DNA of 53,948 bases, taken from a virus (lineage: Duplodnaviria; Caudoviricetes). How positions within the stretch are numbered: position 1 is the first letter of the stretch; each line of letters starts with the position of its first letter. The translations under genes and the position numbers were made by a program. This document shows, in pieces, positions 18,459 to 53,948 of the stretch. The notes beneath the pieces are model-generated. The model was not told where the DNA came from. It was given only the letters and a program-made list of their open reading frames with translations, and did no database searches. Location of the stretch: IMG/VR virus record IMGVR_UViG_3300037722_000592, positions 1 through 53,948 of that record. One strand, written 5' to 3'.

Positions 18459-19667
18459 ATGGCAACTTACGCAGCGGCGGCAAGCCTTGAAGAGGCGAAA
18501 AAGAAGAACGATGCAAAAAAGCAGGGTATGGGTGTACCGCCGGCAAAGTTCGGGGAAGGGGCGACTCTAGTGGATGTCCAGAAAGGGCAGGTGGCGAGGG
18601 ACGGGGGCCGGGGTCAGATGGCCCAGGCCCACACGCCAGGGCAGGGGATACCGCTGTCCTCTTATCCGGCGAGTATGCCGGAGGGGCCGGTAGCCACCCC
18701 CATTAGTCACGTTTCTGGTGGCTTCCCAGGCGACCCTAAGCCATTACCCATAGGGCTTGATGGCTTGATTAACTCGCCCACCCCCGCGCAACAGGGAGAC
18801 ATAGTCCCGCCCCGGGAAAGCACAGGCGGCGTACCGCCGCCGCCAGCGGCAGCCGGCCAGGGGCAAGGCCCAGGCCTTTATTCGCCCGAAGTTGCCCCCC
18901 AGGCCAATGGCTCGGCTGGAGTCCCCGGCGCTCCCGTTTCTCTCGGCGAAGCCCCCGGGGTTGATCGCAAGACGGCGCTCAATAAAGGCTTAATGGCTGC
19001 CGGGCTCACCATGCTTGACCGCGGTGGACGAAGCTATGACGCCCCGGTCTCGGCTGGTTCGATCATGGGCCAAGGTGGTTTGGTCGGGATGCAGGCCTAC
19101 GACCAGGACATCCAACGACAACAGGTCGAGAACCGCAATCAGCAGTCCCTCGAAAAAAGCGAGCTTGATATTGCCGGGGCCAAGCAGGATCTCGAAGACA
19201 AGCCGCTGGAGACCCAGCGCAAAAAGCTGGTCAATGAGAAACTGGAAGCGGCGATTGACGCCTACAGGGATGACAGCAAGCTTAACAAAATACTGGTTCA
19301 GGCCAAAACCGATTATGCCAACGAAAAAAATCCGGAGCAGCGCAAGCGGATCGAGGAGTTTATCCAGGCGTTTTCCGGGACCGGCGAAGACAAGGTTAAC
19401 CAGCCGTGGGTGCTTGGTACATACCCTGTGCCAAACGGCACCAATGAACTGACTGGCGAACCCGAATATATAGATATGCCCTACGCCTTCAACAAAATTA
19501 CCCAAGAGTCCCGGCCGATTTCCTATCCTGGAATGACAGCACCGCAAGGGGCACCGACTAAAGAGAAAATCCTTGACGACTCCACGGCCGCTAAAATACT
19601 CCGGGAGGTTGGTGGGGACAAAGAAAAAGCAATCGCGCGTGCTCAAGAATTAGGTTATACAAAGTAA
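18459..19667 (+). CDS. Internal virion/ejection protein
   Basis: Pro/Gly-rich N-terminus, GLMAAGLTML segment, coiled coil; position. Confidence 0.55.
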   Translation: MATYAAAASLEEAKKKNDAKKQGMGVPPAKFGEGATLVDVQKGQVARDGGRGQMAQAHTPGQGIPLSSYPASMPEGPVATPISHVSGGFPGDPKPLPIGLDGLINSPTPAQQGDIVPPRESTGGVPPPPAAAGQGQGPGLYSPEVAPQANGSAGVPGAPVSLGEAPGVDRKTALNKGLMAAGLTMLDRGGRSYDAPVSAGSIMGQGGLVGMQAYDQDIQRQQVENRNQQSLEKSELDIAGAKQDLEDKPLETQRKKLVNEKLEAAIDAYRDDSKLNKILVQAKTDYANEKNPEQRKRIEEFIQAFSGTGEDKVNQPWVLGTYPVPNGTNELTGEPEYIDMPYAFNKITQESRPISYPGMTAPQGAPTKEKILDDSTAAKILREVGGDKEKAIARAQELGYTK

Positions 19668-28600: not shown

Positions 28601-31600
28601 GGGGTCGATGATCTGACTATCGATGAAGCGCACGAATTCAAAAACCTGTTCTACCACTCCAAGCTATCGGTCCGGGGGATGAACCCGAAAGAAGGCTCGG
28701 CCCGGGCCTACGATCTGTGGACCAAGGTGCGGGTGCTCCAGGAAAGCAAAACCGGCTCGGTTGCCTTTATGACCGGCACCCCGATCTCGAACAGCGCCGT
28801 CGAGATGTATGGCTTGATGCGTTATCTTGCGGCCGACGTGCTGGCGGATATGAACCTCGAACACTTTGACGCCTGGCGCTCTCAGTTCACCACGGTAACC
28901 ACCAAATATGAACCGACTGATAGCGGGCGCGGCCTCAAGGAAGTTAACCGGATCGGCCGGGACTGGTCGAATATGCGGGCCTTGATGGACGCCTACTACA
29001 CCTTTTCCGATTCGGTAAGCAACGGGGATATCCAGGCCTGGTACTCGGAAGACAACGACGGGGCCAGGTTCCCGATTCCCGAAGTAAAAGGCGGAGGCCG
29101 GCAGCAAGTCAATGTTGCCCCCACCGAAGCCCAGGAGCGGATCATTCAAGAGGTTGTAGCCAGGTACGAAGGCCTTGACGGGATCAAGGATGTCAAGGAG
29201 CGCAATAAAGAGCGCCTGCGCCTGATGGACCGGGCACGGAAGGTTTCCCTCGATGTCCGGGTAGTTGACCCTGCGACCGATTCAAAAGAAAGAGGGGGCA
29301 AGCTTGACGCCGTAGCCCGGCAGGTCCACCAGATATACCACGAGTGGCGCGAAGACAAGGGCACTCAGCTGGTCTTCCTCGACCGCAGCGTCCCAAAAGC
29401 CAAGGGTGATGCCGGGAAGATCCAGAAGTACGATGCTTTGCTCCGTGATCTGGAGGCTGCCGAGCGCAAGGGCGATGACGATAAGGCCCGGGCGGTGATC
29501 GGCAAGTTGGAGAAATACGACTACAACGAGATGCAAGAGCTGAAGATAGCGCAGACCGGGAGCTGGAACGCTTACCGGCAGATCAAAGAAAACTTGGTCG
29601 GCCTGGGAATCCCGGAAAACGAAATCAGATTTATTCAGGAAGCCAATACCGACGAACAGAAGAAGACCATGTTCGACGAAGTGAACGCCGGCCAGATCCG
29701 GGTCTTAATCGGGTCTACCCCACGGCTGGGCGCCGGCACCAACGTCCAGGAACGGCTGGTGGCCCTGCACCACGTTGACGTTACCTGGAAGCCATCCGAT
29801 ATCGAACAGCGCGAAGGGCGGATTATCCGGCAGGGCAACAGCCTGTTCGCCAAGTACGGCGAATCCTTCAAGGTCATCATTAACGCCTACACCACCGACA
29901 CTACCGTTGACCAGCGGCTCTGGGATCTCAACGCCACCAAGATGAGAATGATCAACGGGATCCGGAAATACAACGGCGACTTCAACATGGAGTTTGTAGA
30001 CGAGGACAGCGTGAGCATGGCGGAAATCGCAGCCCATGCCTCCGGCAACCCCCTGCAACTTGAACGGGTCCAGCTGGCCGCCGAGATCGATCGCCTGAAC
30101 CGGTCAAAACGCTCATTCGCCCGGCAGCAATGGGGGCAGAAAGACGCCTTGGAAGAGGCTGAAGCCAATATCAAAATCTTGCCGGAGACCATCAAGGCCC
30201 TGGCGCCGGAGGCGGAGAAGATAGCGGCGGAGATTGCCATGGTCGCGGAAGAGGTTAAGAGCCGGACGGTCACCATCGACGGCAAGGAATATGACCGCGG
30301 TCCTTGGGGTTCTAATGCCCACGATGCTTTGGCCGAGAAACGGGACCAGGCCAAAAAGAAGAAAGAGAAGTTTGAAGCCGATATCAACGGCAAGGTCTTT
30401 ACCTCTTTCCAGGACGCCAGCGCCGCGATTGATGATGTAATGGGAGACGGCGCCAACTTCGACGTGGAACTGGACGGCGAGAAATTCATCCGCCATCGCC
30501 GGGCCATAGGGAAGGTGGTCGAGCTTGCCAACGCGGTGATCGACAAGGAAGGTAAGGGGGCGGAGGTTGACTACACGCCGCTGGCCAAGATGCGAGCCTA
30601 CGGGGTCGATATCGATTTGGCCATACAGGTTGTCGACGACGGCAAGGGCCGCACCATCGAATTCCATTTCACCGGCAAGAAAGAGGCCAACGGTCAGCCC
30701 TTAACCTTGGTCCGCAGTATTTACGAAGCCAACCTTGGCGTTGACTATTACGCCCACAGCGCAATGTACGGCATGTTCAGCCGGCCGCTGAACGATGTAA
30801 CTTCGATCCCGAACCGGCTGAAGCAATCGCGCAAGAGGTTGGCGGAAGCCAAGGAGATGGCGCCGGAGCTGCGCAAGCTGGTCGATAAGCCATACCCCAA
30901 AGAACAGGAGCTGAGCGACAAAAAAGACCGGCTCAATGCGGTGGAGCAAGAGCTATCGAATTCGGCCGCCCCGAGCAAAGGTAAAACCACCGACGACGGC
31001 GAGGTCAAATTATCGCAATCATCCTCCCCCAGATCGGGCCAGCTGTCGACCGCGAGAACCCTGCAATCCATCGTGGACAGCTATCTGACCAGCAGCGGCC
31101 GGCGCGACCTGCAAGTGTCTGTGGTGCAGACCGTCGACCAGTTGCGGGCCGGCCTGGTTTTATCCGAAGGGGTAAGCGGCAACGTGGAGGGGGCCTTTGA
31201 TCCCCAGAGCGGCAAGGTCTTTCTGGTGGCTGACAATATCGCCACCACGGAGGCATGGGGCCGCATCCTGCATGAGATCACCCATAAAACCAGAGCCGAA
31301 CAGGGCTGGGGCGGGGTGTTCGGACGCGAAGCCGAGACCATCCTGAACGAAATCGACAAGCGCCTCGCCGCCGGGGCAACGGCCTGGAAGAAAGCCGAGC
31401 AACAAGCCAGGCAAGCCAGAACCTCCGCCGAGAACCTGCGGGAAGAAACTATTACCTACTTCCTGGCCGAACAGGCCAACAGCAACCAATCATTATGGCG
31501 CCGGATCGTCAATGCCATTCGGGCCTGGGCGGTGCGAGTCGGCCTGAAGCGCAAGGTCTCCGATGCGGATATCGTGGCCCTGGCGGAGAATTCGGTGCAG

Positions 31601-34600
31601 AGCCGGGCGCGGTCAACTGTTTCCGAAATGGAAAGTGCTGGCGATACCGTCCCGGCCTTCTCCGAGTCCAACGACATTCGGTACAGCCAGGCCGAGCTTG
31701 CCGCGGCAGCCAAGGCGTTCTTCTCCAAAAAAAACCCCTTCCTGGCCGATAAAGCCAACGAATGGCTGGATAAAGCCGATCCGAAATGGCGGGACCGCTG
31801 GGAGAATATTGTTTATATGGTGGCGGACAAGGATGATCCTAAACGCCTAATCCAAAACCGCTACGGTGAGCAGAGCGAAGAAACCGACTACCTGATGGCC
31901 GAGCGGCTCAGGGGGAAACAGACCGCCGCCGAGGTGGAAAAACTAGCCAGGGAAGAGGTTAACCCGCTGCTGGAGTTTCTGGCCAAAAGCAAGCTGGAAA
32001 TCGCCGACCTGGAAGAATATGCCATGGTCAAGCATGTCCCCGAACGCAACGCGCAAATGCGCCGGATCAACGCTAAACAGTATCTCGGCAACATGACAGC
32101 GCTGTTCACCGGAAAAAAAGAAGAAGAACTGCGGTATGAGATCGGCAATGCGGCGGCCGAGATTGACCGCGAGGACCGGCGCGACAGCTACCTTGACCTG
32201 TTGGCCAAGGAGTTCGCCGGCCTGGACGATTACGGCGACAAGGTGCGGGCGGGAAGGGAGAAACTTGAGGCCCGAGAGTTCACCGCCGAAGAGATAGATA
32301 AGGGAACCCCAGAGCGATTGGAGCGCAACCAGCGGGCCGCCGAGCGCCGTGTTGACCAGTTGTTGAAGCTCCGGGGCCAATGGGGAGACCGCAGTCTTCG
32401 GTTTGCCGGGATGACCGACGCGGAAGCGGCAGAGATTCTTGATAAATGGGAAGCTGACCGACGCTACCCCGAGGTTGAGCAGGCCAGGAAGCAGCTTGCC
32501 AAGATAAACGATGGCCGCCTGGTGGCATTGATTGAAGGTGGTGAGATCACCAAAGACCAGGCCAACCAGATCCGCTCTACATATAAATATTATGTGCCCT
32601 TCAACCGGGAAGGCTTTTCGGATGGCAAGCCCGCTACCGGTAGAAGCACCGGGCCGCTTGGCAAGGCGATCAAAGGTGCCTCTGGGTCACTTCGCCGGGT
32701 GGTGGACATTCTCGCCCATAGCGTGGCGAATCGCCAGGCGGCAATCAGCCGAAAGCACAAGGCTTTGGTTGGCCGGAAACTCTACAACCTGGTCCGGGAG
32801 AATCCCGATCCGGACAACTGGTGGATAGAAGAGCAGCCCAAGGAGGCCGGCCACGATCAAGATGGCAACGTCACCTTCCACAACCAGTTTAAAGAACCGG
32901 CCAACGGGGTCCCCCTGAAACTGGATGGCAAGATATACACGGTCATGGTCAACCGCGAAGACAACACCATGATGCGGATGGTCGAGTCGATAAAGAATAT
33001 GGATGTCGGGATGGGACCGTTTATCCGGGCGCTGTCCAAGATAAACCGGCTGCTCGCCGCCCTGAACACCTCCTTTTCGCCAGAGTTTATTCTTACCAAC
33101 CTACTGCGGGATATGCAGACGGCCGGGATTAACCTTGAAGATTCGGAAGGGAGGGGTGCTCAGAAGCAGATTTTTAAGAATATGCTTACGGCAATCAAGG
33201 GTATCTATAAGGCGGAACGCGGCACCGACAGCGAATGGGGCAAGAAGTACCGGGATTTTGAGAAGAACGGCGGCAAGATCGGCTGGATGCAGTCATACGA
33301 CACCATTGAAGATCTGGCCAGCGGTCTCGGTGAAGAGATGAAGCTTTACCAGGAAGGCCACACCGCCAAAAAAACGGTGCGGAAACTTCACGACCTCCTG
33401 AAAACATCCAACACCGCCATTGAAAACGGAGTGCGGTTGGCAACCTATGATTATCTGGTGAATACCAAGGGGCTTAATAAGCGCAAGGCGGCGCTGATCG
33501 CCAGCAACCTGACGGTTGACTTTACCCGGCGGGGCGCGGCCGGGCCGAATATCAACGCCCTTTATATGTTTGCGAATGCGGGAATTCAGGGGAATATCCG
33601 GATGATTAAGGCCGCCGTGCGAAGCGGGCGGGTGCGAACCATGCTTGGGGCTATTGTCGGCACCGGTTTTATAATGCACTTGCTCGCCCTGGCGACCGGC
33701 GGCGATGACGATGACGGTATGGCTTTCTACGACAAAGTGCCGGACAGCATGAAAGAGCGCAATATGATCGTCATGCTCCAGGACGGCAAACGGGTTACCG
33801 TGCCGATGCCATACGGCTATAACATCTTTTTCAATCTTGGCGATGAACTGGCCGAGATGATGGTGGCGGCCATGGCGGGCCGGGAATACAAGCAGACCAA
33901 AGGGGTGGCCCGGATGTTCTCGGTGTTCTCGAACACCTTCAACCCGATGTCATCAGCTACTTTGCTCCAGACAGTGCTGCCGACCGCACTGGACCCGGTT
34001 GGCTATATTGCGGAAAACAAGACTTGGTTTGGCGGGGACTTGATGCCGTCCGGGAACCCTTTTGCCACAGTGCCCGAGCCTAATTCGCAACGGTTCTGGA
34101 AATCGGTATCGCCGATCAGTAAGGCGGTTGCTCAATCCTTGAACCGCCTTACTGGCGGCGACGCGGTGAAGCCGGGCCTGATCGATGTCTCCCCGGAAGT
34201 CCTTGACTTGATTATTGACACCTACTCCGGTTCGGCCGGCCGGTTTGTCAAAGACACTATGATGTTACCGGTCCGGGCCGCAACCGGGCAGCTGGAGGCG
34301 AATAAAACGCCGATAGCCAGGCGCTTCTACGGCGAACAGTTTGAGGGGGTTAATTCCGGGATATACCGGGAACAGGTCAGGGAAGTAATGACCGTCCACA
34401 ACCAATACCTGGCGGAACCGGACCGCGCCCGGCGCCAGGAGATCAAGGGAAAGGAACTTTTCGGGCTCATCCCGCTGGTTAAGGAATCTGAAAAGGTGAT
34501 CGGAAAACTACGGAAGATTAAAAAGATTCGGGAAGGGAGGGGTGACGACACGACCTTGCTGGAGGATCAGATCGAGAGAATACAAAAGAAGGTTATTGCG

Positions 34601-34621
34601 AGATATCGGCAAACCTTGTAA
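19667..34621 (+). CDS. Giant 4984-aa polyvalent virion protein: InPase-like (~21.7-22.1 kb), N6-adenine methyltransferase (~25.4-26.3 kb), SF2/SNF2 helicase (~28.0-30.0 kb, DarB-like), zincin-like peptidase (~31.2-31.5 kb), LPD38 (~33.7-34.3 kb)
   Basis: ISIENP.GS.RSG...YGY.KGT.G.D.DHVD...FDEHK; LEPSMGIG and IGNPPF; HAVGAGKT, IDEAH, TGTP, GTNVQ, EQREGRIIRQGN; LHEITH...EE; YDKVP...KERN...VPMPYGY...ENKTWFG. Confidence 0.9.
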   Translation: MRDTFDRVAKKDKDSAGKGLGEVFARVAPERTIGDTATDIGIDLLKGAISVPESFVGLADIPTGGRVGKGLESIGYKPAEAKEILSDQYSPARKAAGQKVNEAQGLVDTVSAAIQNPSVIASGALESLPLMGAGGVVGRGLGILGKAGKMSGVLRGAVGEGAVSAGMTAEQIRGETDDKLLSPSQSALAAASGAATALFAQLGGKLAQKAGIGDVDTYLARLPGEEAKRVKKNLVRRAVEGFVSEGVFEELPQSVQEEIAQNVALGKPAFEGVDQAAALGMLSGGLIGGGFNALNSAGTDTPADESTPPADVPAKPPGPLANAAAAGGIPGLGDTLRTHAFVPDDRRGPEAARLRARDETKAQFEDNLAGLNTRSRGIPSSASQSAEVFAAAGPTELEKQVALRTQREAELEQTFSSLQTEEQQTANRDKAKDEAGLDPIHNLRTEIKKRGGLNLDNLKVDYDNETTKALIKKLPGIVKRGGAVELDDIADEMRHYGYKSADDLLRALVESPTRREAEARAVKGIDAGYGHDNRLNESADELDSKGFEPVFAQRPAVDLNLGDKVVTGQDANLPADEYEVKGETSDGRIILEDGVRREVDAFDALNIEGIKRSGKQGFGVPGAVEPSAPVRQPGSSSRESKGVGGDSSPASTEQVTNPASTAHGQEVNTSPSEPMKKAENYKKAHVNVDGHQISIENPVGSMRSGQDDAGKRWEQELKADYGYFKGTVGYDKDHVDTFIKPGYKGGSETVHIVNQHKKDGSFDEHKVVMGADSSADALAVYNQNYESGWTGGKSVVAMPAVQFGKWVKSDAPKTGELLDGEARGLATIEQIKALIPAKKHSMIREQLAEVEELLAEGAPGYTVGQWAETLADLADNQEKWKFGDKNADRPAAEAIIGQVDPAGQYGISYDFKQRGGWAFTIRDLNGRVNGEPLGEKDMDGTFTRISKSIFRLTPSELLKEIAKQQDAFGIIDGGATSDSEEDTNSQDIGPQADRDAKRGKTEPEAGAFTPDESEVRPQEVTGVIKAKDVYGNTHYISQAQLDSGKTLLRRLNKKGEPLEVENTLVHRDNIDLTGGKTTAAHKGALYIAGKEDKGYASPAMAEQGIKRLGQDIDDYTIEEVGGRYVAIHKKVSGGNQKGANGDVRTGKSQPDQEVQVADDGDQSADSGRDGQGRQAELRIEELSEKAIIIKGNTREHKDRIKSASPIRALWNKGKGGWVFPKNREAEIRESLKDLLGEEANTQPSQPGESAATDRSVDYSWAIREPPPQVSAPMVIEPRVTVSYRGRELSGKGYAVPGIEGLAVKVVPPNGSKTDSTKMGWSVWVGDDLVYVNPPTVRATEHLDTAQEAIKVATPKLRRIFTAMQQGGFSGVAQATGDQQQEAEKQTPDASDTSAPSGATSSPNQPFVDAIATRIEEWVSTGTNGGARALDRQWERGAVKRFYDSYLKGSFAGSKTGEWASAKVAAGKADSFDGLKAALAKLVAVKPAPSTPVIPQKEPWQMTRAEYLAAPKTGDKYDGEAFRSGRHSESVRRAIQNNESVPVEVLADYPGLQVKETPESLTKQPVKEKDTPKEQEVKLKEQLKGFGESNKKFTAADAEEARRIMREQLGQLNMGLNPEMLKAGITLAGFYIEGGARSFSDYAKKMVADFGDAIKPHLRQFYEAIRQEPDFDTSGMTTYAELELRKDVPAVESTPDPKSLDAVADYEVIFADENLRFQFQDELDDLFNHKILALARALRDRGWTMDRSIDRLSKDGKRAEVELTQVGAGKNVVGLSVNGVRVEPGVNTADTANRIDATLAAGFDKAQEKADTESKEARDDTEPQGSNEGNGGAIRSLAPATSQSGDQALAGMAAEDGGDAGQGKQADLFGAGRGRKSATRDKRADGGRDAAPRSKRADAETVHPPGAGERSFGEPGTGRVEPAAIPGKNFKITKDLKLGEGSEEVKFQDNLAAISTLKRIEGEQRRATAEEQRTLARYVGWGGLANAFANPVTGDIREGWQGRVKDLAGLLTDNELTVARNSTKAAHYTSEAVASQMWEAVKRLGFKRGNVLEPSMGIGNFIGLTPEGVTANVMGIEYDPITARIGKLLYPQATVIHSGFQQVPLPEGVFDLVIGNPPFGQESLNFQHSPHLNRHSIHNQFFLAGIDALRPGGIQAMVVSRYLMDSKDSGARDALAAEAKLLGVVRLPESAFKENARTDVVTDIIFLQKKTEEEIAATEKEEAPAWTKSTEIEVNGEQIAVNKYFQNNPRAVIGTMTTASSQFSGASLVVKLEKGADLAKLINERTGQILPAGVFTQESTADQARDHFETMRDGMEIALAGHEDASIAFNDLGELVQVHERETEGGDFVLAKRVIGVGSPWSPHLAMDKDGNWFREVDKLDEKGNKIKVADENGKLTKRNAKKRQVFKDVAEIPQSMTMSKLDYGRLRDAVSLLDELVAQVNLEISDAPSLEIEGNRKQLRRAYDAFVKKHDRVNAPVINKLISDLPNGPLLMALETVYKPPIRKDRAEKLNTKPRPAIVKEAAILDERVVFPYESPTSVESASDALAVVLSESGRVDLGRVADLLGQGQDEVIKALHHEAETPLIFLDPETQEWETADEYLGGNVVKKLAAAKGDSGYPKNVDALEAVQPKAWTADQVTPTLGSTWIPTDVYAGFIASLTGKPAKVNFSPLTNTYAVQGEGGTPKAQNWNTPKRNVVEIIEAVLNSRPIRITETIGYGSEKRTVTDQDNTDLANEKGEEIREAFDDWVFQDAGRRKQLVDIFNQKFNVRVVKQRDGQHLKLPGKVPDSVIKMRRHQLNGIWRGIVDRFVLYDHAVGAGKTFTGIARAMERRRMGLSRKPLVVVPNHLVEQFAADAYKLYPGAKVLAAGSKDLNPKKRRRMLGKIATGEWDLVIMPHSSFKFVGISPDTESRFLEEQLRLAEQAIAEAQQQAEEDGLAGHRKPITVKEAERLRDTIQGRLDKLRTRGNKKDRMLSFEQLGVDDLTIDEAHEFKNLFYHSKLSVRGMNPKEGSARAYDLWTKVRVLQESKTGSVAFMTGTPISNSAVEMYGLMRYLAADVLADMNLEHFDAWRSQFTTVTTKYEPTDSGRGLKEVNRIGRDWSNMRALMDAYYTFSDSVSNGDIQAWYSEDNDGARFPIPEVKGGGRQQVNVAPTEAQERIIQEVVARYEGLDGIKDVKERNKERLRLMDRARKVSLDVRVVDPATDSKERGGKLDAVARQVHQIYHEWREDKGTQLVFLDRSVPKAKGDAGKIQKYDALLRDLEAAERKGDDDKARAVIGKLEKYDYNEMQELKIAQTGSWNAYRQIKENLVGLGIPENEIRFIQEANTDEQKKTMFDEVNAGQIRVLIGSTPRLGAGTNVQERLVALHHVDVTWKPSDIEQREGRIIRQGNSLFAKYGESFKVIINAYTTDTTVDQRLWDLNATKMRMINGIRKYNGDFNMEFVDEDSVSMAEIAAHASGNPLQLERVQLAAEIDRLNRSKRSFARQQWGQKDALEEAEANIKILPETIKALAPEAEKIAAEIAMVAEEVKSRTVTIDGKEYDRGPWGSNAHDALAEKRDQAKKKKEKFEADINGKVFTSFQDASAAIDDVMGDGANFDVELDGEKFIRHRRAIGKVVELANAVIDKEGKGAEVDYTPLAKMRAYGVDIDLAIQVVDDGKGRTIEFHFTGKKEANGQPLTLVRSIYEANLGVDYYAHSAMYGMFSRPLNDVTSIPNRLKQSRKRLAEAKEMAPELRKLVDKPYPKEQELSDKKDRLNAVEQELSNSAAPSKGKTTDDGEVKLSQSSSPRSGQLSTARTLQSIVDSYLTSSGRRDLQVSVVQTVDQLRAGLVLSEGVSGNVEGAFDPQSGKVFLVADNIATTEAWGRILHEITHKTRAEQGWGGVFGREAETILNEIDKRLAAGATAWKKAEQQARQARTSAENLREETITYFLAEQANSNQSLWRRIVNAIRAWAVRVGLKRKVSDADIVALAENSVQSRARSTVSEMESAGDTVPAFSESNDIRYSQAELAAAAKAFFSKKNPFLADKANEWLDKADPKWRDRWENIVYMVADKDDPKRLIQNRYGEQSEETDYLMAERLRGKQTAAEVEKLAREEVNPLLEFLAKSKLEIADLEEYAMVKHVPERNAQMRRINAKQYLGNMTALFTGKKEEELRYEIGNAAAEIDREDRRDSYLDLLAKEFAGLDDYGDKVRAGREKLEAREFTAEEIDKGTPERLERNQRAAERRVDQLLKLRGQWGDRSLRFAGMTDAEAAEILDKWEADRRYPEVEQARKQLAKINDGRLVALIEGGEITKDQANQIRSTYKYYVPFNREGFSDGKPATGRSTGPLGKAIKGASGSLRRVVDILAHSVANRQAAISRKHKALVGRKLYNLVRENPDPDNWWIEEQPKEAGHDQDGNVTFHNQFKEPANGVPLKLDGKIYTVMVNREDNTMMRMVESIKNMDVGMGPFIRALSKINRLLAALNTSFSPEFILTNLLRDMQTAGINLEDSEGRGAQKQIFKNMLTAIKGIYKAERGTDSEWGKKYRDFEKNGGKIGWMQSYDTIEDLASGLGEEMKLYQEGHTAKKTVRKLHDLLKTSNTAIENGVRLATYDYLVNTKGLNKRKAALIASNLTVDFTRRGAAGPNINALYMFANAGIQGNIRMIKAAVRSGRVRTMLGAIVGTGFIMHLLALATGGDDDDGMAFYDKVPDSMKERNMIVMLQDGKRVTVPMPYGYNIFFNLGDELAEMMVAAMAGREYKQTKGVARMFSVFSNTFNPMSSATLLQTVLPTALDPVGYIAENKTWFGGDLMPSGNPFATVPEPNSQRFWKSVSPISKAVAQSLNRLTGGDAVKPGLIDVSPEVLDLIIDTYSGSAGRFVKDTMMLPVRAATGQLEANKTPIARRFYGEQFEGVNSGIYREQVREVMTVHNQYLAEPDRARRQEIKGKELFGLIPLVKESEKVIGKLRKIKKIREGRGDDTTLLEDQIERIQKKVIARYRQTL
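25071..25112 (+). promoter_or_regulatory. Internal sigma70-type promoter and RBS inside the giant gene
   Basis: TTGACA (25071-76), 17-nt spacer, GATACT (25094-99); AAGGAGG at 25106-12. Confidence 0.65.
25119..25424 (+). CDS. Overprinted (+1 frame) 101-aa helical protein, distantly TnpV-like
   Basis: Perfect SD 6 nt before ATG25119; AIKHWQEWLPKM...HEAKELMLKRYILLEPE; host frame is a low-complexity linker here. Confidence 0.65.
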   Translation: MIQSHREAMKAMGAPYGHSPLQLRNLAIKHWQEWLPKMAATLAKENRLISSALAAAEKVQRGISEQMAAGMQHHEAKELMLKRYILLEPESEVLESLEQEG

Positions 34622-48816: not shown

Positions 48817-50763
48817 TTATCCTTTACTGAAAGTTAATTTTTTGTCCTTGCTGACCACCAGCTTGATCAGCTGGGTGTTCGGCGAGGCCAGTTGGTTGAC
48901 GCTTTCGGCCCGGTCAACGATGACCGGTAGCCGGACCCCGTAATATTCGGACAGGGTGCGGATAATCTGTAGCCCGGTATTAATTCTGGCGGCGGTGTTG
49001 GCGCTCTCGTAGGGTACGCCGGTGATCAGGACATCGCAACAGGGCACCAGGCCGCCGTTGATGTTCTCCTTGAACAGCTTGAATTTAATCCCCGGGAATC
49101 TTTGCTGAATACTCTCGTCGAGCATAGCCACCTTGGCCCGCACAAATTCTTCCATCAGGAAAATATCAGCCTCGGCCGCTTCAACCTCTTGGGCCAGCCG
49201 CTTCTCTTCCTCCCGGAGTTCATCGTTTCGGGTGTTGAGCTTGTGGTGCTCGTCGACCAGATCCATGCTTGCCTGCAATCCGCTCTTCTCGGCCCGCAGC
49301 GCTTCCAGTTCGTCGGTCAGCTTCTGGCGAAGCGCAGAGTTGTCGCCGCCCGCCTCGGCCGCTTCGATCTCGGCCATGAGCTTGGCACGTTCCGCAACCG
49401 CTTCAACGTAGCCCGCAATATCTTCCGGCTTGGCGGCGGCCCCCAGCATAGCGGAGATCTCTTGGGACGCTGCTTCAATTTTCTGGCTGAACCCGTCAAC
49501 CTCAACCTGCGCGGCCCTCAGCCCTTCTTCCAGGCCTTTAAGTTCCAGGTCAATTTTGGAGAGACGGGTCTTCATTTCGACCCCGGCCTCGTTGATCTCC
49601 TGGAGACTCCGGCTGCGCTGGCTCTCGAAAACCGAGATTTGGAGTTCGTCTGGGATAACCTGGGTGCAGCTGTCGCAGGTCAAGCCGGAGGTTACCCCCC
49701 GCGGTATCGAAGAAAGCGTATCGAAATCCTGGCTGAGCTGAGCCCGCTTGTTTTGCAGAGTGCCTTGCTCGGCGAGCAGGCCGTCTCGCTGGCTTCCCAA
49801 TCCACTTTGCCGGTTTGTCGCGGTCTGTAAGTCGAACAGCAAGTTAGCTTTGCGGGTGCCCTTGGCGCGGATCGTATTGGCGCGAGCATCCTCGGCTTGG
49901 CGTTTAAACCCGGCGATCTTGTCATCAACCGCGGATAAATCGCTTTTGAGCGCGAAAGCGGCGCCGCCGGAATCGAGGCCGGCCACGGTCTGCCGCTTCC
50001 CGGCGACTTGGTTGTCGATTGCCACCATCGCCTGTGCGGTTTTTTTGGCATCGATTCCGGAGATGTCCGGCATCCGGCGGGAATTCTCGTCAATCCTGGT
50101 GGGAATCTCGTCAAGTTTTTCGTTGGTCTTGGTCCGCTCGCTCTTGCGGATCGCCATGAAGTCCTCCACCGCCTTGCCGTTCAGGATTGAGGGCAACCGG
50201 GCCAAGGCGCGGTTGGTTGCGATCACCTGGTCGTCGGAAACATTCTCGATTATGTCCAGTAAAACCTCCCGGCGCTTCTCCCACTTGACCCCTTCGGCGA
50301 AGTAGTCCGGCACGGTCAGCAACCGGAAAGTCTCTTCGCTGGCAATTTCGGCGATCTGCGCCTTGAATTTACCCGCCGTTGTGCCGACGCCGTTAATAAA
50401 GTATTCGGTGGTGTGGCCGGTGAAAACCTTCTGGGCCGCCCCACGTTTGCGGGTATGGATTTCCTTGTAAATTTTCTTCAGGACCAGTTCCGTCCCGTTC
50501 AAGAGGAAAACTCCCTCAACGGAATGGTCCAGGTGCCCGAGTTCATTTCCCTCGGCGTCCAGGGTTTTCAGTGCAAACTTGGCATCGCTGCGGCCTTGCA
50601 TATCTTTCCCGAACAACAGCCAGGTGATGCCGTCGCCGCAGGTGGTTTTACCTAGGCGATTGTCGCCGGCGATGGTGAAGTCCTCGCCTTCAGGCGTGAT
50701 CGTAATGGCTTTGAGACCCCGAAAATTTTCCAGGGTCAGTTTCTGTAATCTAAGCTGCTGCAT
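48817..50763 (-). CDS. SbcC/Rad50-like coiled-coil ATPase
   Basis: LENFRG, Walker A GDNRLGKTT, central CxxC hook, coiled coils, IVDRAES. Confidence 0.85.
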   Translation of the reverse strand: MQQLRLQKLTLENFRGLKAITITPEGEDFTIAGDNRLGKTTCGDGITWLLFGKDMQGRSDAKFALKTLDAEGNELGHLDHSVEGVFLLNGTELVLKKIYKEIHTRKRGAAQKVFTGHTTEYFINGVGTTAGKFKAQIAEIASEETFRLLTVPDYFAEGVKWEKRREVLLDIIENVSDDQVIATNRALARLPSILNGKAVEDFMAIRKSERTKTNEKLDEIPTRIDENSRRMPDISGIDAKKTAQAMVAIDNQVAGKRQTVAGLDSGGAAFALKSDLSAVDDKIAGFKRQAEDARANTIRAKGTRKANLLFDLQTATNRQSGLGSQRDGLLAEQGTLQNKRAQLSQDFDTLSSIPRGVTSGLTCDSCTQVIPDELQISVFESQRSRSLQEINEAGVEMKTRLSKIDLELKGLEEGLRAAQVEVDGFSQKIEAASQEISAMLGAAAKPEDIAGYVEAVAERAKLMAEIEAAEAGGDNSALRQKLTDELEALRAEKSGLQASMDLVDEHHKLNTRNDELREEEKRLAQEVEAAEADIFLMEEFVRAKVAMLDESIQQRFPGIKFKLFKENINGGLVPCCDVLITGVPYESANTAARINTGLQIIRTLSEYYGVRLPVIVDRAESVNQLASPNTQLIKLVVSKDKKLTFSKG

Positions 50764-50783
50764 GTTTTCCTCCTCGTCGAGAG

Positions 50784-50957
50784 TTACCGGATTTTCCCGG
50801 TGTGATACATTTTCCCTACAGCCTCGGCCCGCTGGGCGCTTTCGGCCAATAACGCCTGGCAGCAGCCGATAAAGCCGCCGACTACGATTAGGCCGAAACA
50901 GAGCCAGCAGATGATATCAAGAATGTGGTCAGTCAGATCCCGGTTTTTTCCTCCCAT
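50784..50957 (-). CDS. Small membrane protein
   Basis: AAGGAG RBS, one TM segment. Confidence 0.5.
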   Translation of the reverse strand: MGGKNRDLTDHILDIICWLCFGLIVVGGFIGCCQALLAESAQRAEAVGKMYHTGKIR

Positions 50958-51189
50958 GACACGCCTCTCCTTTTTTTTGCGCAGGTTCAACCCAGAACCC
51001 ATCTTTCTTGAGCTGTTGCACGATCCGGCCCGATTCCCCGAGGCCCGCCGGGCCGTAGATGTTCCCGCCAGTCCCGGCCGTGATATGACACGTGGTCTGG
51101 TAGTTGAACCCGTGTTTCTTCGCCCAGTACCGCAGGGTAAACCCGGAGCGGCGGATCTTTTTGCTGATCGGACTCAACGACCGGCTCAT
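50929..51189 (-). CDS. Ner/Cro-like HTH DNA-binding protein
   Basis: IRRSGFTLRYWAKKHGFNYQT; second gene of the leftward operon. Confidence 0.6.
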   Translation of the reverse strand: MSRSLSPISKKIRRSGFTLRYWAKKHGFNYQTTCHITAGTGGNIYGPAGLGESGRIVQQLKKDGFWVEPAQKKGEACHGRKKPGSD

Positions 51190-51190
51190 C

Positions 51191-51394
51191 TCAGCACCCC
51201 ACCCGATAGAAAAAGTTACATTTATCGCACCTGTATTCTAGATACGACGTCTCAGGGCGGGTTATTCTGAGCCGGTGCCCCTTCTTCTTGATGCAGTCCG
51301 TTACGAGCGGGGGGACATCTTCGCCCCAATCCGCCGAATCTCCTAAATCGATCTTCCTTTCCGGCTGTGTAGCCGGAGATGGTGTTTGTGGCAT
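51191..51394 (-). CDS. Small Cys-containing hypothetical protein
   Basis: GGAGG RBS; first gene after the leftward promoter. Confidence 0.6.
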   Translation of the reverse strand: MPQTPSPATQPERKIDLGDSADWGEDVPPLVTDCIKKKGHRLRITRPETSYLEYRCDKCNFFYRVGC

Positions 51395-51483: not shown

Positions 51484-51511
51484 TTTACATTTATCGCTGG
51501 TGTGGTAAGCT
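51484..51511 (+). promoter_or_regulatory. Rightward promoter driving the cassette array
   Basis: TTTACA (51484-89), 16 nt, TAAGCT (51506-11) with extended -10 TG. Confidence 0.6.
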
Positions 51512-51512
51512 G

Positions 51513-51643
51513 GCATTACGATAAAACTCAGAGGAAGCGGGAGAACTTGAAATGAGTGGAGTAGAAGTAGCAACGGGCGAACTGGTAAAAGATAAGATTG
51601 GTGGCGGAACGGCCCCGCTTTCCGCTGAAGTGACGGGTTGTGC
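51513..51643 (-). repeat. attC-like site 0 (131 bp, degenerate outer box)
   Basis: + strand GCATTAC-gataaa-ACT-CAGAGG-AAGCGGG...CCCGCTT-[T]-CCGCTG-[A]-AGT-gacgg-GTTGTGC. Confidence 0.7.
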
Positions 51644-51926
51644 CCTCCGGTGCTTGGCCGCATTGGGGCATGTCGAAGTGGCTAATCAAAGATGCGGGGC
51701 GAGATATAAAGACGGCCCACGGGTGCCTGGCCCTCAAAATCCGCCCGTATGGTGCGACCTCACCGCCGGGCACGACGGCCCGCATCGACACGCCAGCGGC
51801 CATCATTGGGTGACAATGGATCGCCTAGACCTGATAGAGGTGAAGCCGATACCAGCCCTCTGCGCTAAATGCGGGGTTCGGTGGCCATGCGCTGACGCGG
51901 AGAAGGTTTTTAATGCCCTTATTTAA
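51552..51926 (+). CDS. Cassette 0 gene, Cys/His-rich hypothetical protein
   Basis: GGGAG RBS and ATG inside attC0; C...GHDGPH and CAKCGVRWPC motifs. Confidence 0.65.
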   Translation: MSGVEVATGELVKDKIGGGTAPLSAEVTGCALRCLAALGHVEVANQRCGARYKDGPRVPGPQNPPVWCDLTAGHDGPHRHASGHHWVTMDRLDLIEVKPIPALCAKCGVRWPCADAEKVFNALI

Positions 51927-51927
51927 G

Positions 51928-52010
51928 GCATAACGGCCAGCCTAACCGGGCGGCCCAAGATTAATTTTTGCCGGATGCGTTGCTCGCTCCGGTTGAGGTA
52001 CTGGTTATGT
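51928..52010 (-). repeat. attC-like site 1 (83 bp)
   Basis: + strand GCATAAC-ggccag-CCT-AACCGG-GCG...CGC-[T]-CCGGTT-[G]-AGG-tactg-GTTATGT. Confidence 0.88.
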
Positions 52011-52228
52011 GGAAATTTTTCAAATGGGGGGCGAAAAACCACCCTGGAAATCCGATCTACTTGCTGGCGTTTGTTGGAGTGTGGCTGGCCGCCATGAAAA
52101 ATGCTGACATTAAAAGCGGTATTATTGCGGGCATTGTTGCTACGTGTATTTTGGTGTGCGCGTATGTCTTAACTAGTATTTCTGTTGGGAAGGCTAACAG
52201 AGGGTTGGTTGATGATTATTACACATAA
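52007..52228 (+). CDS. Cassette 1 gene, small two-TM membrane protein
   Basis: ATG within GTTATGT box (alternative in-frame TTG51968 in the attC loop); stop is the TAA of ACATAAC. Confidence 0.7.
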   Translation: MWKFFKWGAKNHPGNPIYLLAFVGVWLAAMKNADIKSGIIAGIVATCILVCAYVLTSISVGKANRGLVDDYYT

Positions 52229-52309
52229 CGACAGCAATAAGCCGCCCATATACGGCGGTGGATTAAGGCCGGATGCGTGGTAGGTCGGCCTTAATTGGCC
52301 TTGTTATGC
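52223..52309 (-). repeat. attC-like site 2 (87 bp)
   Basis: + strand ACATAAC-gacag-CAAT-AAG-CCG-CC...GG-[T]-CGG-[C]-CTT-[A]-ATTG-gcctt-GTTATGC. Confidence 0.85.
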
Positions 52310-52334
52310 CTTTAAATCAAATGAGGAGGCGGCT

Positions 52335-52583
52335 ATGTTTGGGAAGGTAAGCGAAGGGGTAAAGATGCTGGCGCAACATATGGTCGACCATCCTGAAGAT
52401 TGGATACAAGGCCAGTACCATTACTCAAATACCAAATCACGAGATATTAATATTTGGACTGCAAACGGTGATAGCCATATTGCTTTTGAAGGGAACAAAT
52501 GCCTGAACAAAGCAGAGCAGAAATACTTGGCAAATGCTATCAAAAAATCAATAGCCAAACGAGCTATAGCGGCTACAGCATAA
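52335..52583 (+). CDS. Cassette 2 gene, hypothetical protein
   Basis: GAGGAGG RBS; stop is the TAA of GCATAAC; AT-rich. Confidence 0.75.
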   Translation: MFGKVSEGVKMLAQHMVDHPEDWIQGQYHYSNTKSRDINIWTANGDSHIAFEGNKCLNKAEQKYLANAIKKSIAKRAIAATA

Positions 52584-52668
52584 CGGCTGGCATAACCAGC
52601 CGCGCCAATGAAGTGAAACCTGTATGCCGCCAGCGTTCTTGCGGTCTGCGTTAATGCCCTGGTTGGGC
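52578..52668 (-). repeat. attC-like site 3 (91 bp)
   Basis: + strand GCATAAC-ggctg-GCAT-AAC-CAG-CCGC...GCGG-[T]-CTG-[C]-GTT-[A]-ATGC-cctg-GTTGGGC. Confidence 0.88.
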
Positions 52669-52689
52669 TTTTAAATTAGGAGGAATAAA

Positions 52690-52872
52690 ATGTTCGGAAT
52701 CCTTAAAAACGTGACTAAGGCCATTGTTGGTGTCGCAACCATTCCGCTTGATGTTGCCGCCGATGTAGTGACCCTTGGCGGTGCTTGTAACGATAAGAAG
52801 AGGCCCTACACCGCTGAGAAAATTTCTTCCATTATGGAGAATTTGGGAAAGGCTGTTGACCCTGACGAATGA
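52690..52872 (+). CDS. Cassette 3 gene, small hypothetical protein
   Basis: AGGAGG RBS; MFGILK...P.DVAADVVTLGG. Confidence 0.75.
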   Translation: MFGILKNVTKAIVGVATIPLDVAADVVTLGGACNDKKRPYTAEKISSIMENLGKAVDPDE

Positions 52873-53945
52873 AACAGCCCAACGACCAGCATCACCGGAC
52901 GCGGCAACTGAACATGATGAAAAAAATCCCAAGCTTCCCGCGTTCCGGTGAATGCGCTTGTTACACGGTCCTTGACCTGTTCTCGGGGATAGGTGGGTTT
53001 TCTTTGGGCCTGACGAGGGCCGGATTCCGCACCACGGCGTTTTGCGAGATTGAAGAATACCCAAGGTCGATACTGCGTAAACACTGGCCGGATGTCCCGA
53101 TTTTTGAAGACGTGAGGAAACTACATGCCGCAGACCTGCCAGAGCCAGTTACCGTTATTTGCGGAGGCTACCCTTGCCAGCCGTTCAGTCTTGCCGGGCA
53201 GCGAAAGGGCAAGGACGATGACCGCCACCTCTGGCCGGAGATTGTGCGAATTATACGAGAACTGGATGCCACCACAGGAAAGCCCACTTGGTGCATTTTC
53301 GAGAATGTTGCTGGCCACGTCAGTATGGGCCTCGACCAGGTGCTTATTGACCTGGAAGCTGAAGGTTACGCCGCGTGGCCGTTTATTGTTCCAGCTTGCG
53401 CCGTCAATGCCCCCCACCGCAGAGACCGGGTGTGGATTGTTGCCCACCATGCGGGCCGGACTGACCGGCGACATAACCCCGGAGAGGTGCAACGACAAGA
53501 ACCGCAACCTGGAAAAGGCATTGGCGTTGATGTTGTTTCCGCCTCCACACGCCAGTTGCTCGACCGGGGCCGGGACTTCCGGGCGGCAGGGCGGAATGAA
53601 CTTGCAGACTGCCGTTGCTTTGTTGCCGACTCCGACGCAAAGCATGGTGACGTTCCAGGACTTCGAGCAGGCCAAATACCACAGCAGCAAGAGGCCGGAA
53701 TACAGCAAGATTCTTTTGCCGACCCCCAAAGCGAACAAGCCAGAAGGGTATTCGAGCCCTGGTTTTCGGCCAACCCTGAATCAGGTAGTGACCTGCGAGG
53801 ACAAGCCGGTGAGTGGATCACTCTGCCCGGAGTTCGTGCGCGAAATGATGGGCTACCCGGAAGGGTGGCTAGATTAAAGGCTTTGGGGAATGCCGTTGTC
53901 CCGCAAATCCCGGAGCTAATCGGACGGTGCATAAGGGCCGTGTAA
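52869..53945 (+). CDS. Cassette 4 gene, C5-cytosine DNA methyltransferase alpha chain (start 52869 or 52914/52917)
   Basis: Motifs I DLFSGIGG, IV GGYPCQ, VI FENV, VIII HRRDRVW, X LKALGNAV; no motif IX in this frame. Confidence 0.9.
   Translation: MKQPNDQHHRTRQLNMMKKIPSFPRSGECACYTVLDLFSGIGGFSLGLTRAGFRTTAFCEIEEYPRSILRKHWPDVPIFEDVRKLHAADLPEPVTVICGGYPCQPFSLAGQRKGKDDDRHLWPEIVRIIRELDATTGKPTWCIFENVAGHVSMGLDQVLIDLEAEGYAAWPFIVPACAVNAPHRRDRVWIVAHHAGRTDRRHNPGEVQRQEPQPGKGIGVDVVSASTRQLLDRGRDFRAAGRNELADCRCFVADSDAKHGDVPGLRAGQIPQQQEAGIQQDSFADPQSEQARRVFEPWFSANPESGSDLRGQAGEWITLPGVRARNDGLPGRVARLKALGNAVVPQIPELIGRCIRAV
52877..52966 (-). repeat. attC-like site 4 (90 bp)
   Basis: + strand GCCCAAC-gacca-GCAT-CACCGG-ACGCGG...CCGCGT-[T]-CCGGTG-[A]-ATGC-gctt-GTTACAC. 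Confidence 0.9.
53125..53877 (+). CDS. Nested +1-frame methyltransferase beta chain carrying motif IX
   Basis: GAGGA RBS at 53114-18; LLPTP repeats; C-terminal LCPEFVREMMGYPEGW. Confidence 0.75.
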   Translation: MPQTCQSQLPLFAEATLASRSVLPGSERARTMTATSGRRLCELYENWMPPQESPLGAFSRMLLATSVWASTRCLLTWKLKVTPRGRLLFQLAPSMPPTAETGCGLLPTMRAGLTGDITPERCNDKNRNLEKALALMLFPPPHASCSTGAGTSGRQGGMNLQTAVALLPTPTQSMVTFQDFEQAKYHSSKRPEYSKILLPTPKANKPEGYSSPGFRPTLNQVVTCEDKPVSGSLCPEFVREMMGYPEGWLD

Positions 53946-53948
53946 CGC
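53940..53948 (-). repeat. Start of attC-like site 5 (truncated by window end)
   Basis: GTGTAAC, exact complement of GTTACAC at 52960; contains the methyltransferase stop codon. Confidence 0.7.

Follow-up and report, generated by a model that had tools for sequence, protein, structure and literature searches.

The window analysed here is the IMG/VR virus record IMGVR_UViG_3300037722_000592 in its full length of 53,948 bases; the record is linear, has a GC content of 56.8% and is estimated to be 89% complete. Its positions 51934-53945, at the end of an early rightward operon, probably constitute an integron-type array of four gene cassettes without an integrase, i.e. a cluster of attC sites lacking an integrase (CALIN). 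The record was assigned to an uncultivated tailed phage from sediment on account of its entry as a virus in IMG/VR and of its genes for the terminase subunits TerS (small) and TerL (large), the portal, the major head protein, a RecT-like protein for annealing and an ATPase of the SbcC type; a virion structural protein is encoded as well. As defined for IntegronFinder, a CALIN comprises at least two attC sites that lie on the same strand, less than 4 kb apart, with no intI gene nearby (Cury et al. 2016, PMC4889954). The window contains four such sites on one strand within 1.04 kb, and no intI in the record. An original prediction, made from this DNA alone, had proposed that integron-type attC sites reside on this phage, and the analysis supports this proposal.

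Four attC-like hairpins between the genes of the operon

The genes of the rightward operon are separated by four imperfect intergenic hairpins of 83-91 nt, which start with an AAC box and finish with a GTT box. On the plus strand, each of them can be read as a 5'-AAC box, an unpaired spacer, an L stem with 2-3 extrahelical bases opposite AAC, a variable loop and a GTT box. The sites and the lone box that closes the array are listed below. Lengths were measured from 7-nt box to 7-nt box; bit scores refer to the covariance models R1, R2 and R3, which are introduced further below.

51928-52010, plus strand (bottom, recombinogenic strand): predicted attC site H1, 83 nt; bulged T and G on the 3' arm; R3 17.5 bits, E 0.11 (match on the minus strand)
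52223-52309, plus strand (bottom strand): predicted attC site H2, 87 nt; R3 24.9 bits, E 0.0015; R2 25.1 bits; R1 19.3 bits (matches on the minus strand)
52578-52668, plus strand (bottom strand): predicted attC site H3, 91 nt; three bulged bases on the 3' arm; no match with R2 or R3 at E<=10
52877-52966, plus strand (bottom strand): predicted attC site H4, 90 nt; R3 10.2 bits, E 7.1 (match on the minus strand), within noise
53938-53946, plus strand: terminal lone AAC box CCGTGTAAC with the junction CCGTGTAA|C, marks where the array ends on the right; only two more bases of the record follow

The hairpins, their AAC and GTT boundaries, the unpaired spacer and the bulged bases had all been described correctly by the original prediction. 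Its size range of 83-131 bp held at the lower end only, as 131 bp was not reproduced. Lengths of 83, 87, 91 and 90 nt fall inside the range of attC sites, which is roughly 55-140 nt.

The pairing of the boxes was determined by counting uninterrupted complementarity from the conserved triplet outwards. The GTT boxes of H1 to H4 are complementary to the AAC box across the downstream gene over 8, 7, 8 and 9 bp, respectively, but to the AAC box of their own hairpin over only 6, 6, 3 and 3 bp. This pattern had been noticed before and was then interpreted as a footprint of cassette shuffling. The position of the crossover within the R box makes the boxes around each gene complementary (Nivina et al. 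2016, PMC5027507); complementary boxes are thus the ordinary build of any cassette array and no mark of recent shuffling. A hint of the order of events comes from H2: its GTT box shows a second complementarity, of 10 bp, with the box located where gene 1, the first gene of the operon, ends; by eye, this match extends for four more bases beyond one bulge. The 10-bp match suggests that cassette 2, which consists of H1 and gene 2, was inserted at the AA|C of a hairpin that formerly joined gene 1 to gene 3. Judged from these boxes, cassette 2 may have been the last one inserted.

The geometry of the hairpins was analyzed by aligning each 5' arm to the reverse complement of its 3' arm. In the 15 reference sites from Shewanella phage M16-3, viewed on the strand of the cassette genes, extra bases occur in the 5' arm in 12 cases; the first one is mostly the 9th base after AAC and is typically preceded by a 3-nt spacer and five paired bases. 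On the minus strand, all four window hairpins have this layout, and in three of them the 9th base is likewise the first extra one. Correspondingly, on the plus (coding) strand, the 3' arm carries 2-3 extra bases in each of the four hairpins, and the spacer of the other arm has one. The integrase cuts the bottom strand of attC within 5'-AAC-3', and the extrahelical bases of that strand sit on the arm opposite the AAC triplet (Nivina et al. 2016, PMC5027507). As the bulges of the window sites are opposite AAC on the plus strand, this strand has bottom-strand geometry, and the crossover AA|C is placed on it. For H1, it is predicted between 51933 and 51934. The bulged T and G of H1 are 6 bp apart, which is also the arrangement of attCaadA7. 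The usual first extrahelical base of attC is G; it is G in H1 and A in the other three window sites.

Surrogate covariance models of attC were built solely from sites of Shewanella phage M16-3 (MZ568829), which carries an annotated integron integrase with a cassette array and a second array that is a CALIN; the window was never part of the training. R1, R2 and R3 were derived from three well-aligned sites, 8 sites and 15 sites, respectively. R3 was run unfiltered on both strands of 88,150 bases (the window and the contigs L003 and L004) with a threshold of E<=10 and gave six matches. Among them are H2, H1 and H4 with 24.9, 17.5 and 10.2 bits, all on the minus strand and at exactly the coordinates assigned by eye; the other matches are short palindromes of 12.2-14.2 bits in two control loci. 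The unfiltered search with R2 reproduced the exact coordinates and the strand (H2, 25.1 bits, E 9e-4; H1, 16.2 bits; H4, 10.0 bits). For calibration, R3 was applied to the CALIN of Tetrasphaera phage TJE1, where it scored sites at 24.1, 22.9 and 10.6 bits, and to a site beside an intI pseudogene of Acidovorax sp. NB1, which scored 19.9 bits. Two attC sites of TJE1 are recombined by IntI1 (Qi et al. 2023, PMC9892861), their coordinates not being matched to the R3 hits. In the controls, R3 scores did not exceed 12.9 bits over 58 kb of other phage and prophage DNA and 14.2 bits across all controls except phage P12002L; R2 stayed at or below 12.3 bits in another 63 kb. Judged only by score, H2 is a clear match and H1 a marginal one, and neither H4 nor H3 reaches significance. 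With these surrogate models, the covariance search on both strands that had been proposed as a check gave matches for H2 and H1, while H4 stayed within noise and H3 was missed.

Two further candidates from these searches were rejected. A cluster of four weak matches in contig L011 (11.4-12.9 bits) was dismissed, as it falls within densely packed coding sequence. In Polaribacter phage P12002L, the sole intergenic match between methylase genes scored 12.1 bits, which is below the noise of 16.1 bits in this phage, and no conclusion on polarity was drawn from it.

Other explanations for individual hairpins were considered as well. Intrinsic terminators and repetitive extragenic palindrome (REP)-like hairpins were discarded, as none of the four terminator-like sites on the plus strand coincides with H1-H4 and no T run follows the hairpins. 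A promoter consensus scan found nothing in the hairpin sites of the window, and Rfam, at its gathering thresholds, had no match in the window. The folding energy of the single hairpins is not distinct from that of shuffled sequences (z -1.2 to -2.5) and was not used as evidence; base skews of the hairpins were uninformative. The pattern is nevertheless considered to be beyond chance because of the matrix of box complementarities, the matches of the covariance models, the covariation among ten sites and the recurrence in other phage contigs. The latter two are presented in the following.

One hairpin family in three phage contigs

The original prediction had stated that the hairpins share architecture but not sequence. 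This was too strong: the four window hairpins align as one sequence family, with 24 of 96 columns invariant and a mean column identity of 70%. Members of this family were found in two other phage contigs. The first, L022 (record G002; 38,137 bp, GC 43%, 79% complete), was found by means of a 20-mer of an H1 arm. The sole similarity between the window and the whole of L022 is H1, which matches L022 5135-5224 with 84.4% identity over 90 nt (E 2.5e-17); a tblastx comparison of the window with L022 gave no match. An H3-like site (5802-5889) follows the H1-like site. The array of L022 is internal, being located between a phage primase gene and an open reading frame (ORF) of 1481 amino acids, and its genes differ from those of the window.

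The second contig, L037 (record G003; 15,870 bp, GC 48%, 27% complete), was found with a pattern of an H3 arm. It contains an H4-like site (2247-2329, 84.5% identity over 84 nt), for which homology extends exactly from AAC to GTT, and an H3-like site (48-86, 89.7% identity over 39 nt). R3 detected four sites on one strand of L037, with 26.4, 18.4, 17.2 and 8.5 bits. The box complementarity resembles that of the window, with 8, 8, 9 and 6 bp across units versus 3-5 bp within hairpins. The array is located about 2 kb upstream of a TerS gene that belongs to the same PHROG as the TerS of the window, and TerL is encoded on the same contig. As predicted, other phage contigs thus carry the same hairpins with different cargo; the three contigs are otherwise unrelated or only distantly or mosaically related. 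H3, which the models missed, was assigned on the basis of its geometry, the family alignment, the covariation and its homologues in L022 and L037.

Further searches for members of the family were negative. The exact scan with both H1 arms had no match in viral, metagenome and genome contigs, and a bacterial array of this attC family was not found, as the H1 arms had no match in genome and metagenome contigs. An exact scan with a 24-mer of H3 gave no match either. A looser H3 pattern led to 12 loci, only one of which, L022, is real, the other 11 matching by chance in coding DNA; among the three loci found with the H3 arm pattern that led to L037, L036 is a chance match.

An alignment of ten sites from the three phage contigs (A7) was used to assess covariation. 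In this alignment, 86.6% of the cells pair, compared to 71.0% in shuffled alignments, and 12 of the 19 stem pairs have changed on both sides, compared to a mean of 6.8; none of 500 shuffles reached either value. When the partner columns were slid by one to three places, pairing fell to 32-44%. The stem of the family keeps three unpaired positions on the 3' arm through compensatory change. Both terminal triplets, AAC and GTT, are present in all four window sites and in nine of the ten family sites. Of the wobble cells on the plus strand, eight are G-T and none is A-C, in agreement with the plus strand being the folding strand.

The folding strand is also the transcribed strand. Together with the overlap of hairpins with a ribosome-binding site and a start codon (see below) and the lack of significance of H3 and H4 with the attC model, this lends some support to a phage intergenic repeat unrelated to integrases, such as an RNA element of the polycistronic transcript, with a role in processing, stability or translational coupling, or the site of another enzyme acting on single-stranded DNA, whose likeness to attC would be convergent. 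Covariation does not separate RNA from DNA, and the failure of Rfam to find a match neither supports nor excludes a new RNA. An RNA element, however, leaves it unexplained why boxes are complementary across genes and mismatched within hairpins. Likewise, it accounts neither for the invariant terminal AAC and GTT nor for a spacer length and bulge position equal to those of proven attC sites, nor for the matches obtained with a model trained on a Shewanella integron. Moreover, the co-oriented sites of L037 flank ORFs on both strands and are therefore not tied to one transcript. We consider such a repeat quite improbable.

The assembly was inspected with the aid of sequencing data. Six sediment or soil runs contain part of the stretch, and four of them (X1-X4) were compared with it as assembled contigs. 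For the probable source run, contig breaks fall within H1 and H3, because words at these places are common to other contigs (depth 305 at position 51955 versus 92 for the phage). All four runs contain hairpin-sized pieces on contigs with unlike flanks; for example, a contig of 1774 nt matches only 51932-52009, and a contig of 286 nt matches only 52582-52675. In X2, a loose end beside H1 is identical to L022 5108-5137, so that this other context is an L022-like phage. The window record itself stops two bases after an AAC box (53946-53948), and L037 starts inside an AAC box (1-7). Assemblers appear to break at these sites since the same words recur elsewhere, so that counts of such arrays will tend to be too low in surveys based on assembled viral contigs.

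The position of the array at the very end of the record, and the breaks at H1 and H3 in the independent assembly of the probable source run, would fit a bacterial cassette array that was wrongly joined to a phage contig via a repeated attC sequence. Contradicting this, the three pieces of the source run have similar depths (91.8 for the backbone, 79.9 and 86 for the cassette contigs); the possible hint of cassette-less genomes in these values was not used, as contig depth cannot be ranked. In addition, the first piece runs from phage genes into H1, and the last one extends 309 letters past the end of the window. The array of L022 is internal, that of L037 shares its contig with TerS and TerL, which come after it, and the cargo of the window is of phage type. 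An assembly artefact is therefore hardly credible.

Cargo, polarity and possible mobility of the predicted cassettes

In the proposed arrangement, a unit would comprise an attC hairpin and the gene downstream of it, and would extend to the sixth base of the next AAC box. The original prediction had listed five cassettes. The following four, with their AA|C junctions, agree with the present analysis:

51934-52228, plus strand: predicted cassette 2 (H1 and gene 2); boxes GTTATGTG and CACATAAC complementary over 8 bp
52007-52228, plus strand: gene 2, 73 amino acids, two hydrophobic segments, GC 44%; weak match to phrog_30424
52229-52583, plus strand: predicted cassette 3 (H2 and gene 3); boxes complementary over 7 bp
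52335-52583, plus strand: gene 3, 82 amino acids, GC 41%; homologue with 53% identity in phage contig L003, there without flanking hairpins
52584-52882, plus strand: predicted cassette 4 (H3 and gene 4); boxes complementary over 8 bp
52690-52872, plus strand: gene 4, 60 amino acids, GC 47.5%; full-length match to phrog_33676 (E 4.9e-15)
52883-53945, plus strand: predicted cassette 5 (H4 and a C5 cytosine DNA methyltransferase gene); boxes GTTACACGG and CCGTGTAAC complementary over 9 bp
52914-53945, plus strand: C5 methylase, 343 amino acids, GC 57%; PF00145 (E 2.8e-39, residues 17-185), phrog_363 (E 3.4e-77), TIGR00675 (99.7 bits)
53125-53877, plus strand, +1 frame: ORF nested in the methylase gene, 250 amino acids, preceded by GAGGA, with a motif-IX-like MMGYPEGW; phrog_1008 (E 3.4e-27)

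The fifth proposed cassette, 51519-51933 with gene 1, did not hold. The GTTGTGC of its box pair (51637-51643) lies inside the ORF of gene 1. Gene 1 is a backbone gene and not a cassette, because both a hairpin and a model match are missing upstream of it; the array takes its left junction box AAGGCATAA|C from the 3' end of this gene. The ORFs of the window are considered real on account of the phrog_33676 match of gene 4, the PF00145 and phrog_363 matches of the methylase, and the homologue of gene 3 in L003. The GC content of genes 2-4 is 41-47.5%, compared to 56.8% for the window, which fits an acquisition from elsewhere. For genes 1-4 and the nested ORF, searches of Pfam, NCBIfam and PDB sequences returned nothing on the function of the small proteins.

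The main frame of the methylase gene holds motifs I-VIII and the final GNAVVP motif. The same nested pair is annotated in Paenibacillus phage Likha (LIKHA_51/52); both frames are conserved between the two phages, except for the middle of the main frame; the pair is not mentioned in a Paenibacillus genome paper. The methylase and the nested ORF may represent a two-subunit or frameshifted methylase.

Since the models match on the minus strand and all four ORFs lie on the plus strand, the recombinogenic bottom strand of the window sites is the coding strand. A canonical cassette has its ORF co-oriented with the top strand of attC, and no cassette of the window is of this kind. The ORFs are therefore reversed and would be antisense to the cassette promoter Pc in a bacterial integron. 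Translation signals are located inside the sites. The loop of H4 contains the only in-frame start codons of the methylase (ATGATG, 52914-52919), and the 3' arm of H1 contains the GAGG that serves gene 2 as ribosome-binding site; the homologous loop of L037 has stop codons at the position of the methylase start. Because of these embedded signals, a hairpin with its downstream gene makes a complete gene, whereas a gene with its downstream hairpin does not. In L037, the co-oriented sites flank ORFs on both strands (two units on the plus and three on the minus strand), so that the family includes canonical cassettes as well. The uniform polarity of the window probably reflects selection for expression from the phage promoter.

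Several observations weigh against the interpretation of the locus as an array of attC cassettes. H3 was missed by R2 and R3, and the score of H4 lies within noise, which reached 14.2 bits in the controls and 16.1 bits in the AT-rich P12002L. The strict consensus RYYYAAC/GTTRRRY is present in one of the four AAC boxes (GCCCAAC) and one of the four GTT boxes (GTTGGGC); the remaining boxes are of the CATAAC/GTTATG type, which is also seen in the Shewanella phage sites. The location of the ORFs on the bottom strand is a non-canonical arrangement. Profiles of the integron integrase (TIGR02249) and of tyrosine recombinases (PF00589) had no match in the window, in G002 or in G003, which are 89, 79 and 27% complete, and the array of the window abuts the end of an incomplete record. 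In the H1-like site of L022, AAC is replaced by TAT, which indicates that at least some sites are decaying. Homology across contigs covers only hairpins and never a whole cassette, and therefore gives no sign of the transfer of an intact cassette. Finally, no excision product, array variant or joint at AA|C was found among the assembled contigs of X1-X4, and contigs drop rare variants.

It follows from some of these observations that another history has to be weighed, in which true attC sites are left in a fossil array. Such an array would have been acquired en bloc, by illegitimate or homologous recombination, from the chromosomal integron of a bacterium, or would go back to old insertions, and would now be an ordinary operon without exchange. 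The lack of IntI in all three records, the decayed triplet of L022 and the lack of array variants in the run contigs point in this direction, and the translation signals embedded in the hairpins suggest domestication. Furthermore, Vibrio phages with fragments of chromosomal integrons have been described (Qi et al. 2023, PMC9892861). On the other hand, AAC, GTT, stem and bulges are all kept in each of the four window sites, and the compensatory changes in 12 of 19 pairs imply that the structure is still under selection. The cargo is phage-type and not bacterial (phrog_33676, the homologue of gene 3 in phage L003, phrog_363), the 10-bp complementarity of the GTT box of H2 to the end of gene 1 is in keeping with the insertion of a single cassette at AA|C inside a phage, and one site family with different cargo occurs in three phage contigs. 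A fossil array is thus judged unlikely.

Two observations on L022 and one on L037 were made beside this argument. In L022, a box TGTGTAAC at 6128-6137 is followed, 310 nt on (to 6439-6454), by TATATAAC and, after 5 nt, by GTTACACA, as read by eye. This looks like a short perfect palindrome that was split by the insertion of one unit at AA|C, and it resembles the inverted GTTRRRY motifs described at the borders of CALINs (Qi et al. 2023, PMC9892861). To the left of the H1 crossover, the window (51911-51933) and L022 (5125-5146) both have, by eye, ATGCCCTT, a short gap and AGGCAT, which fall in different frames of two unrelated genes. The conserved element consequently reaches about 20 nt past AA|C, which a simple cassette model does not predict. 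One cassette of L037 (110-496) encodes a protein of 128 amino acids in which the N-terminal methylation motif of prepilins was recognised (PF07963, E 7e-7); phages do not usually carry such cargo.

For the array of four cassettes, the following mechanism is plausible. An integron integrase would cut A|C in each AAC box of the plus strand and thereby move the units 51934-52228, 52229-52583, 52584-52882 and 52883-53945. The enzyme could be a host-encoded IntI that acts in trans on phage DNA while this is single-stranded during replication or recombination. The genes would be expressed as one transcript from a phage promoter upstream of gene 1, and the cargo, i.e. an orphan C5 methylase and three small phage-type proteins, would serve infection, for example by protection from restriction. 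The cassettes may be exchangeable to the present day, although the original prediction stated their exchangeability too firmly. A complete integron, comprising intI, an adjacent attI and Pc, is not present in the 53,948-bp record, and the record stops at what would canonically be the attI-proximal end of the array. An integrase gene might lie beyond this end; a simple wrap-around to the terS start would be more likely, because the array of L037 is located upstream of terS and the window starts at terS. Should the window start be the continuation, no hairpin follows the terminal box, as inspection of bases 1-150 by eye revealed no GTT box or stem of the family; the terminator scan did not call the terminator-like stem located at about 75-97.

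A wider proposal is that sediment phages share a cassette pool of their own, with one attC family, whose members are swapped between unrelated phages by host integrases and many of which are phage-polarised. We regard this as conceivable but rather doubtful. If it were true, phage-polarised cassettes, which have their ORF on the attC bottom strand and their translation signals within the site, would be expressed from a phage promoter and would be silent and cost-free when parked in a bacterial integron. Integrons would then serve the exchange of bacterial defence genes and of phage counter-defence genes alike.

Genomic context and relation to known systems

The leftward early genes of the phage stop near 50763-51394, and a divergent control region is located between them and the rightward operon, which runs from gene 1 to the record end. 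The following features adjoin the array:

51216-51228, plus strand: 13-mer TTACATTTATCGC, copy 1, operator-like, in the divergent control region; phage backbone, outside the array
51485-51497, plus strand: 13-mer TTACATTTATCGC, copy 2, overlapping a putative -35 element (TTTACA) of the rightward promoter
51552-51926, plus strand: gene 1, 124 amino acids, Cys/His-rich, GC 58%; only a weak match to phrog_20343

The window contains two exact copies of TTACATTTATCGC, whereas two matches occurred in none of 100 shuffles. Both copies are near the gene of a small helix-turn-helix protein (50929-51189, phrog_925) and are probably operators of an early switch. The putative rightward promoter with TTTACA, which was read by eye and not called by the consensus promoter scan, would drive gene 1 and the array. 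In the structural region, a single ORF on the plus strand (19667-34621) encodes 4984 amino acids.

A close phage relative in which the same locus could be compared was not found by searches with the ATPase, blastn, gene 1 and TerL. The ATPase led, in viral and metagenome contigs, only to relatives of 30-34%, which are low-GC phages without the hairpins. The blastn search of isolated phages gave 74 records, which matched only in the conserved methylase core and none of which reached 80% coverage, and the search with gene 1 found no relatives. TerL has a relative of 54% in an Acidovorax prophage and two more at 37%, and the array was not found around them. The Acidovorax prophage TerL is the nearest one and gives a weak hint of a proteobacterial host. 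In Acidovorax sp. NB1 (L020, G001 contig 23, 3000-6429), intI is split by stop codons into two pieces (184.5 and 103.4 bits; cut-off 265). Upstream of the broken intI, an attC-like site on the opposite strand scores 19.9 bits and a second site scores 9.0 bits. The genome with the closest large-terminase relative thus seems to contain a chromosomal integron in decay.

The phage CALIN as a kind is rare but already described, and the novelty claimed for the locus in the original prediction has to be reduced accordingly: phage-borne CALINs with methylase cargo have been published. Qi et al. (2023, PMC9892861) searched 10,705 phage genomes from NCBI with IntegronFinder and HattCI and report three complete integrons, one In0 and 17 CALINs; IntI1 recombined five of six phage attC sites, and five methyltransferases are among the cargo. 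No survey of attC sites in viral metagenomes turned up in titles and abstracts, which is not to claim that none exists. What is new here is that the example stems from an uncultivated phage, that one site family occurs in three contigs and has different cargo in each, and that all ORFs are on the bottom-strand side, presumably read from a phage promoter and with translation signals inside the sites. Preprints from 2024 describe integron cassettes as stores of bacterial anti-phage defence systems. Phage cassettes of the same kind, carrying an orphan cytosine methylase and small phage-family proteins, put both sides of the arms race on one exchange mechanism. In addition, the locus provides testable sites for the action of a host IntI on replicating phage DNA.

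A comparison with other systems of repeated stem-loops and cassettes places the array as follows. In sedentary chromosomal integrons such as the VCR arrays of Vibrio, one homogeneous attC family is combined with unrelated cargo. The window is similar in that one site family occurs on unrelated ORFs and homology stops at the edges of the sites; its family is, however, spread over phage genomes, whereas the VCR family is found within one chromosome. In T4-type phages, promoter-early stem-loop (PeSL) modules flank small accessory genes in a plastic region with gene shuffling, and act by homologous recombination between near-identical repeats that contain promoters. The window sites differ from PeSLs by having no promoter consensus, by their divergent sequences, and by their attC boxes and bulge geometry.

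Canonical attC sites, such as those of Shewanella phage M16-3 (MZ568829) and of mobile integrons (Nivina et al. 2016, PMC5027507), resemble the window sites in their R boxes, central spacer, L stem with 2-3 extrahelical bases, variable loop and length. As in the window, the R box halves of canonical arrays originate from neighbouring cassettes, and stop codons are embedded in the AAC box. Canonical integrons differ from the window, which has no intI, attI or Pc in the record, has reversed ORFs, and contains a start codon and a ribosome-binding site inside the sites. The closest parallel is provided by the phage CALINs described by Qi et al. (2023, PMC9892861), for example that of TJE1, which share with the window co-oriented attC sites between small ORFs, a tailed phage as carrier, the lack of intI and methyltransferase cargo. 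The R3 scores of TJE1 (24.1, 22.9 and 10.6 bits) are in the same range as those of the window (24.9, 17.5 and 10.2 bits). With the same model, the sites of TJE1 are on the gene strand, which is the canonical polarity, whereas the four ORFs of the window are on the bottom-strand side. The window is an uncultivated IMG/VR record and thus outside that survey, which was based on NCBI genomes. The sharing of a site family across three phage contigs, as found here, is not described in the main-text parts of Qi et al. (2023, PMC9892861) that were compared, and it would distinguish the present array from the phage CALINs presented there.

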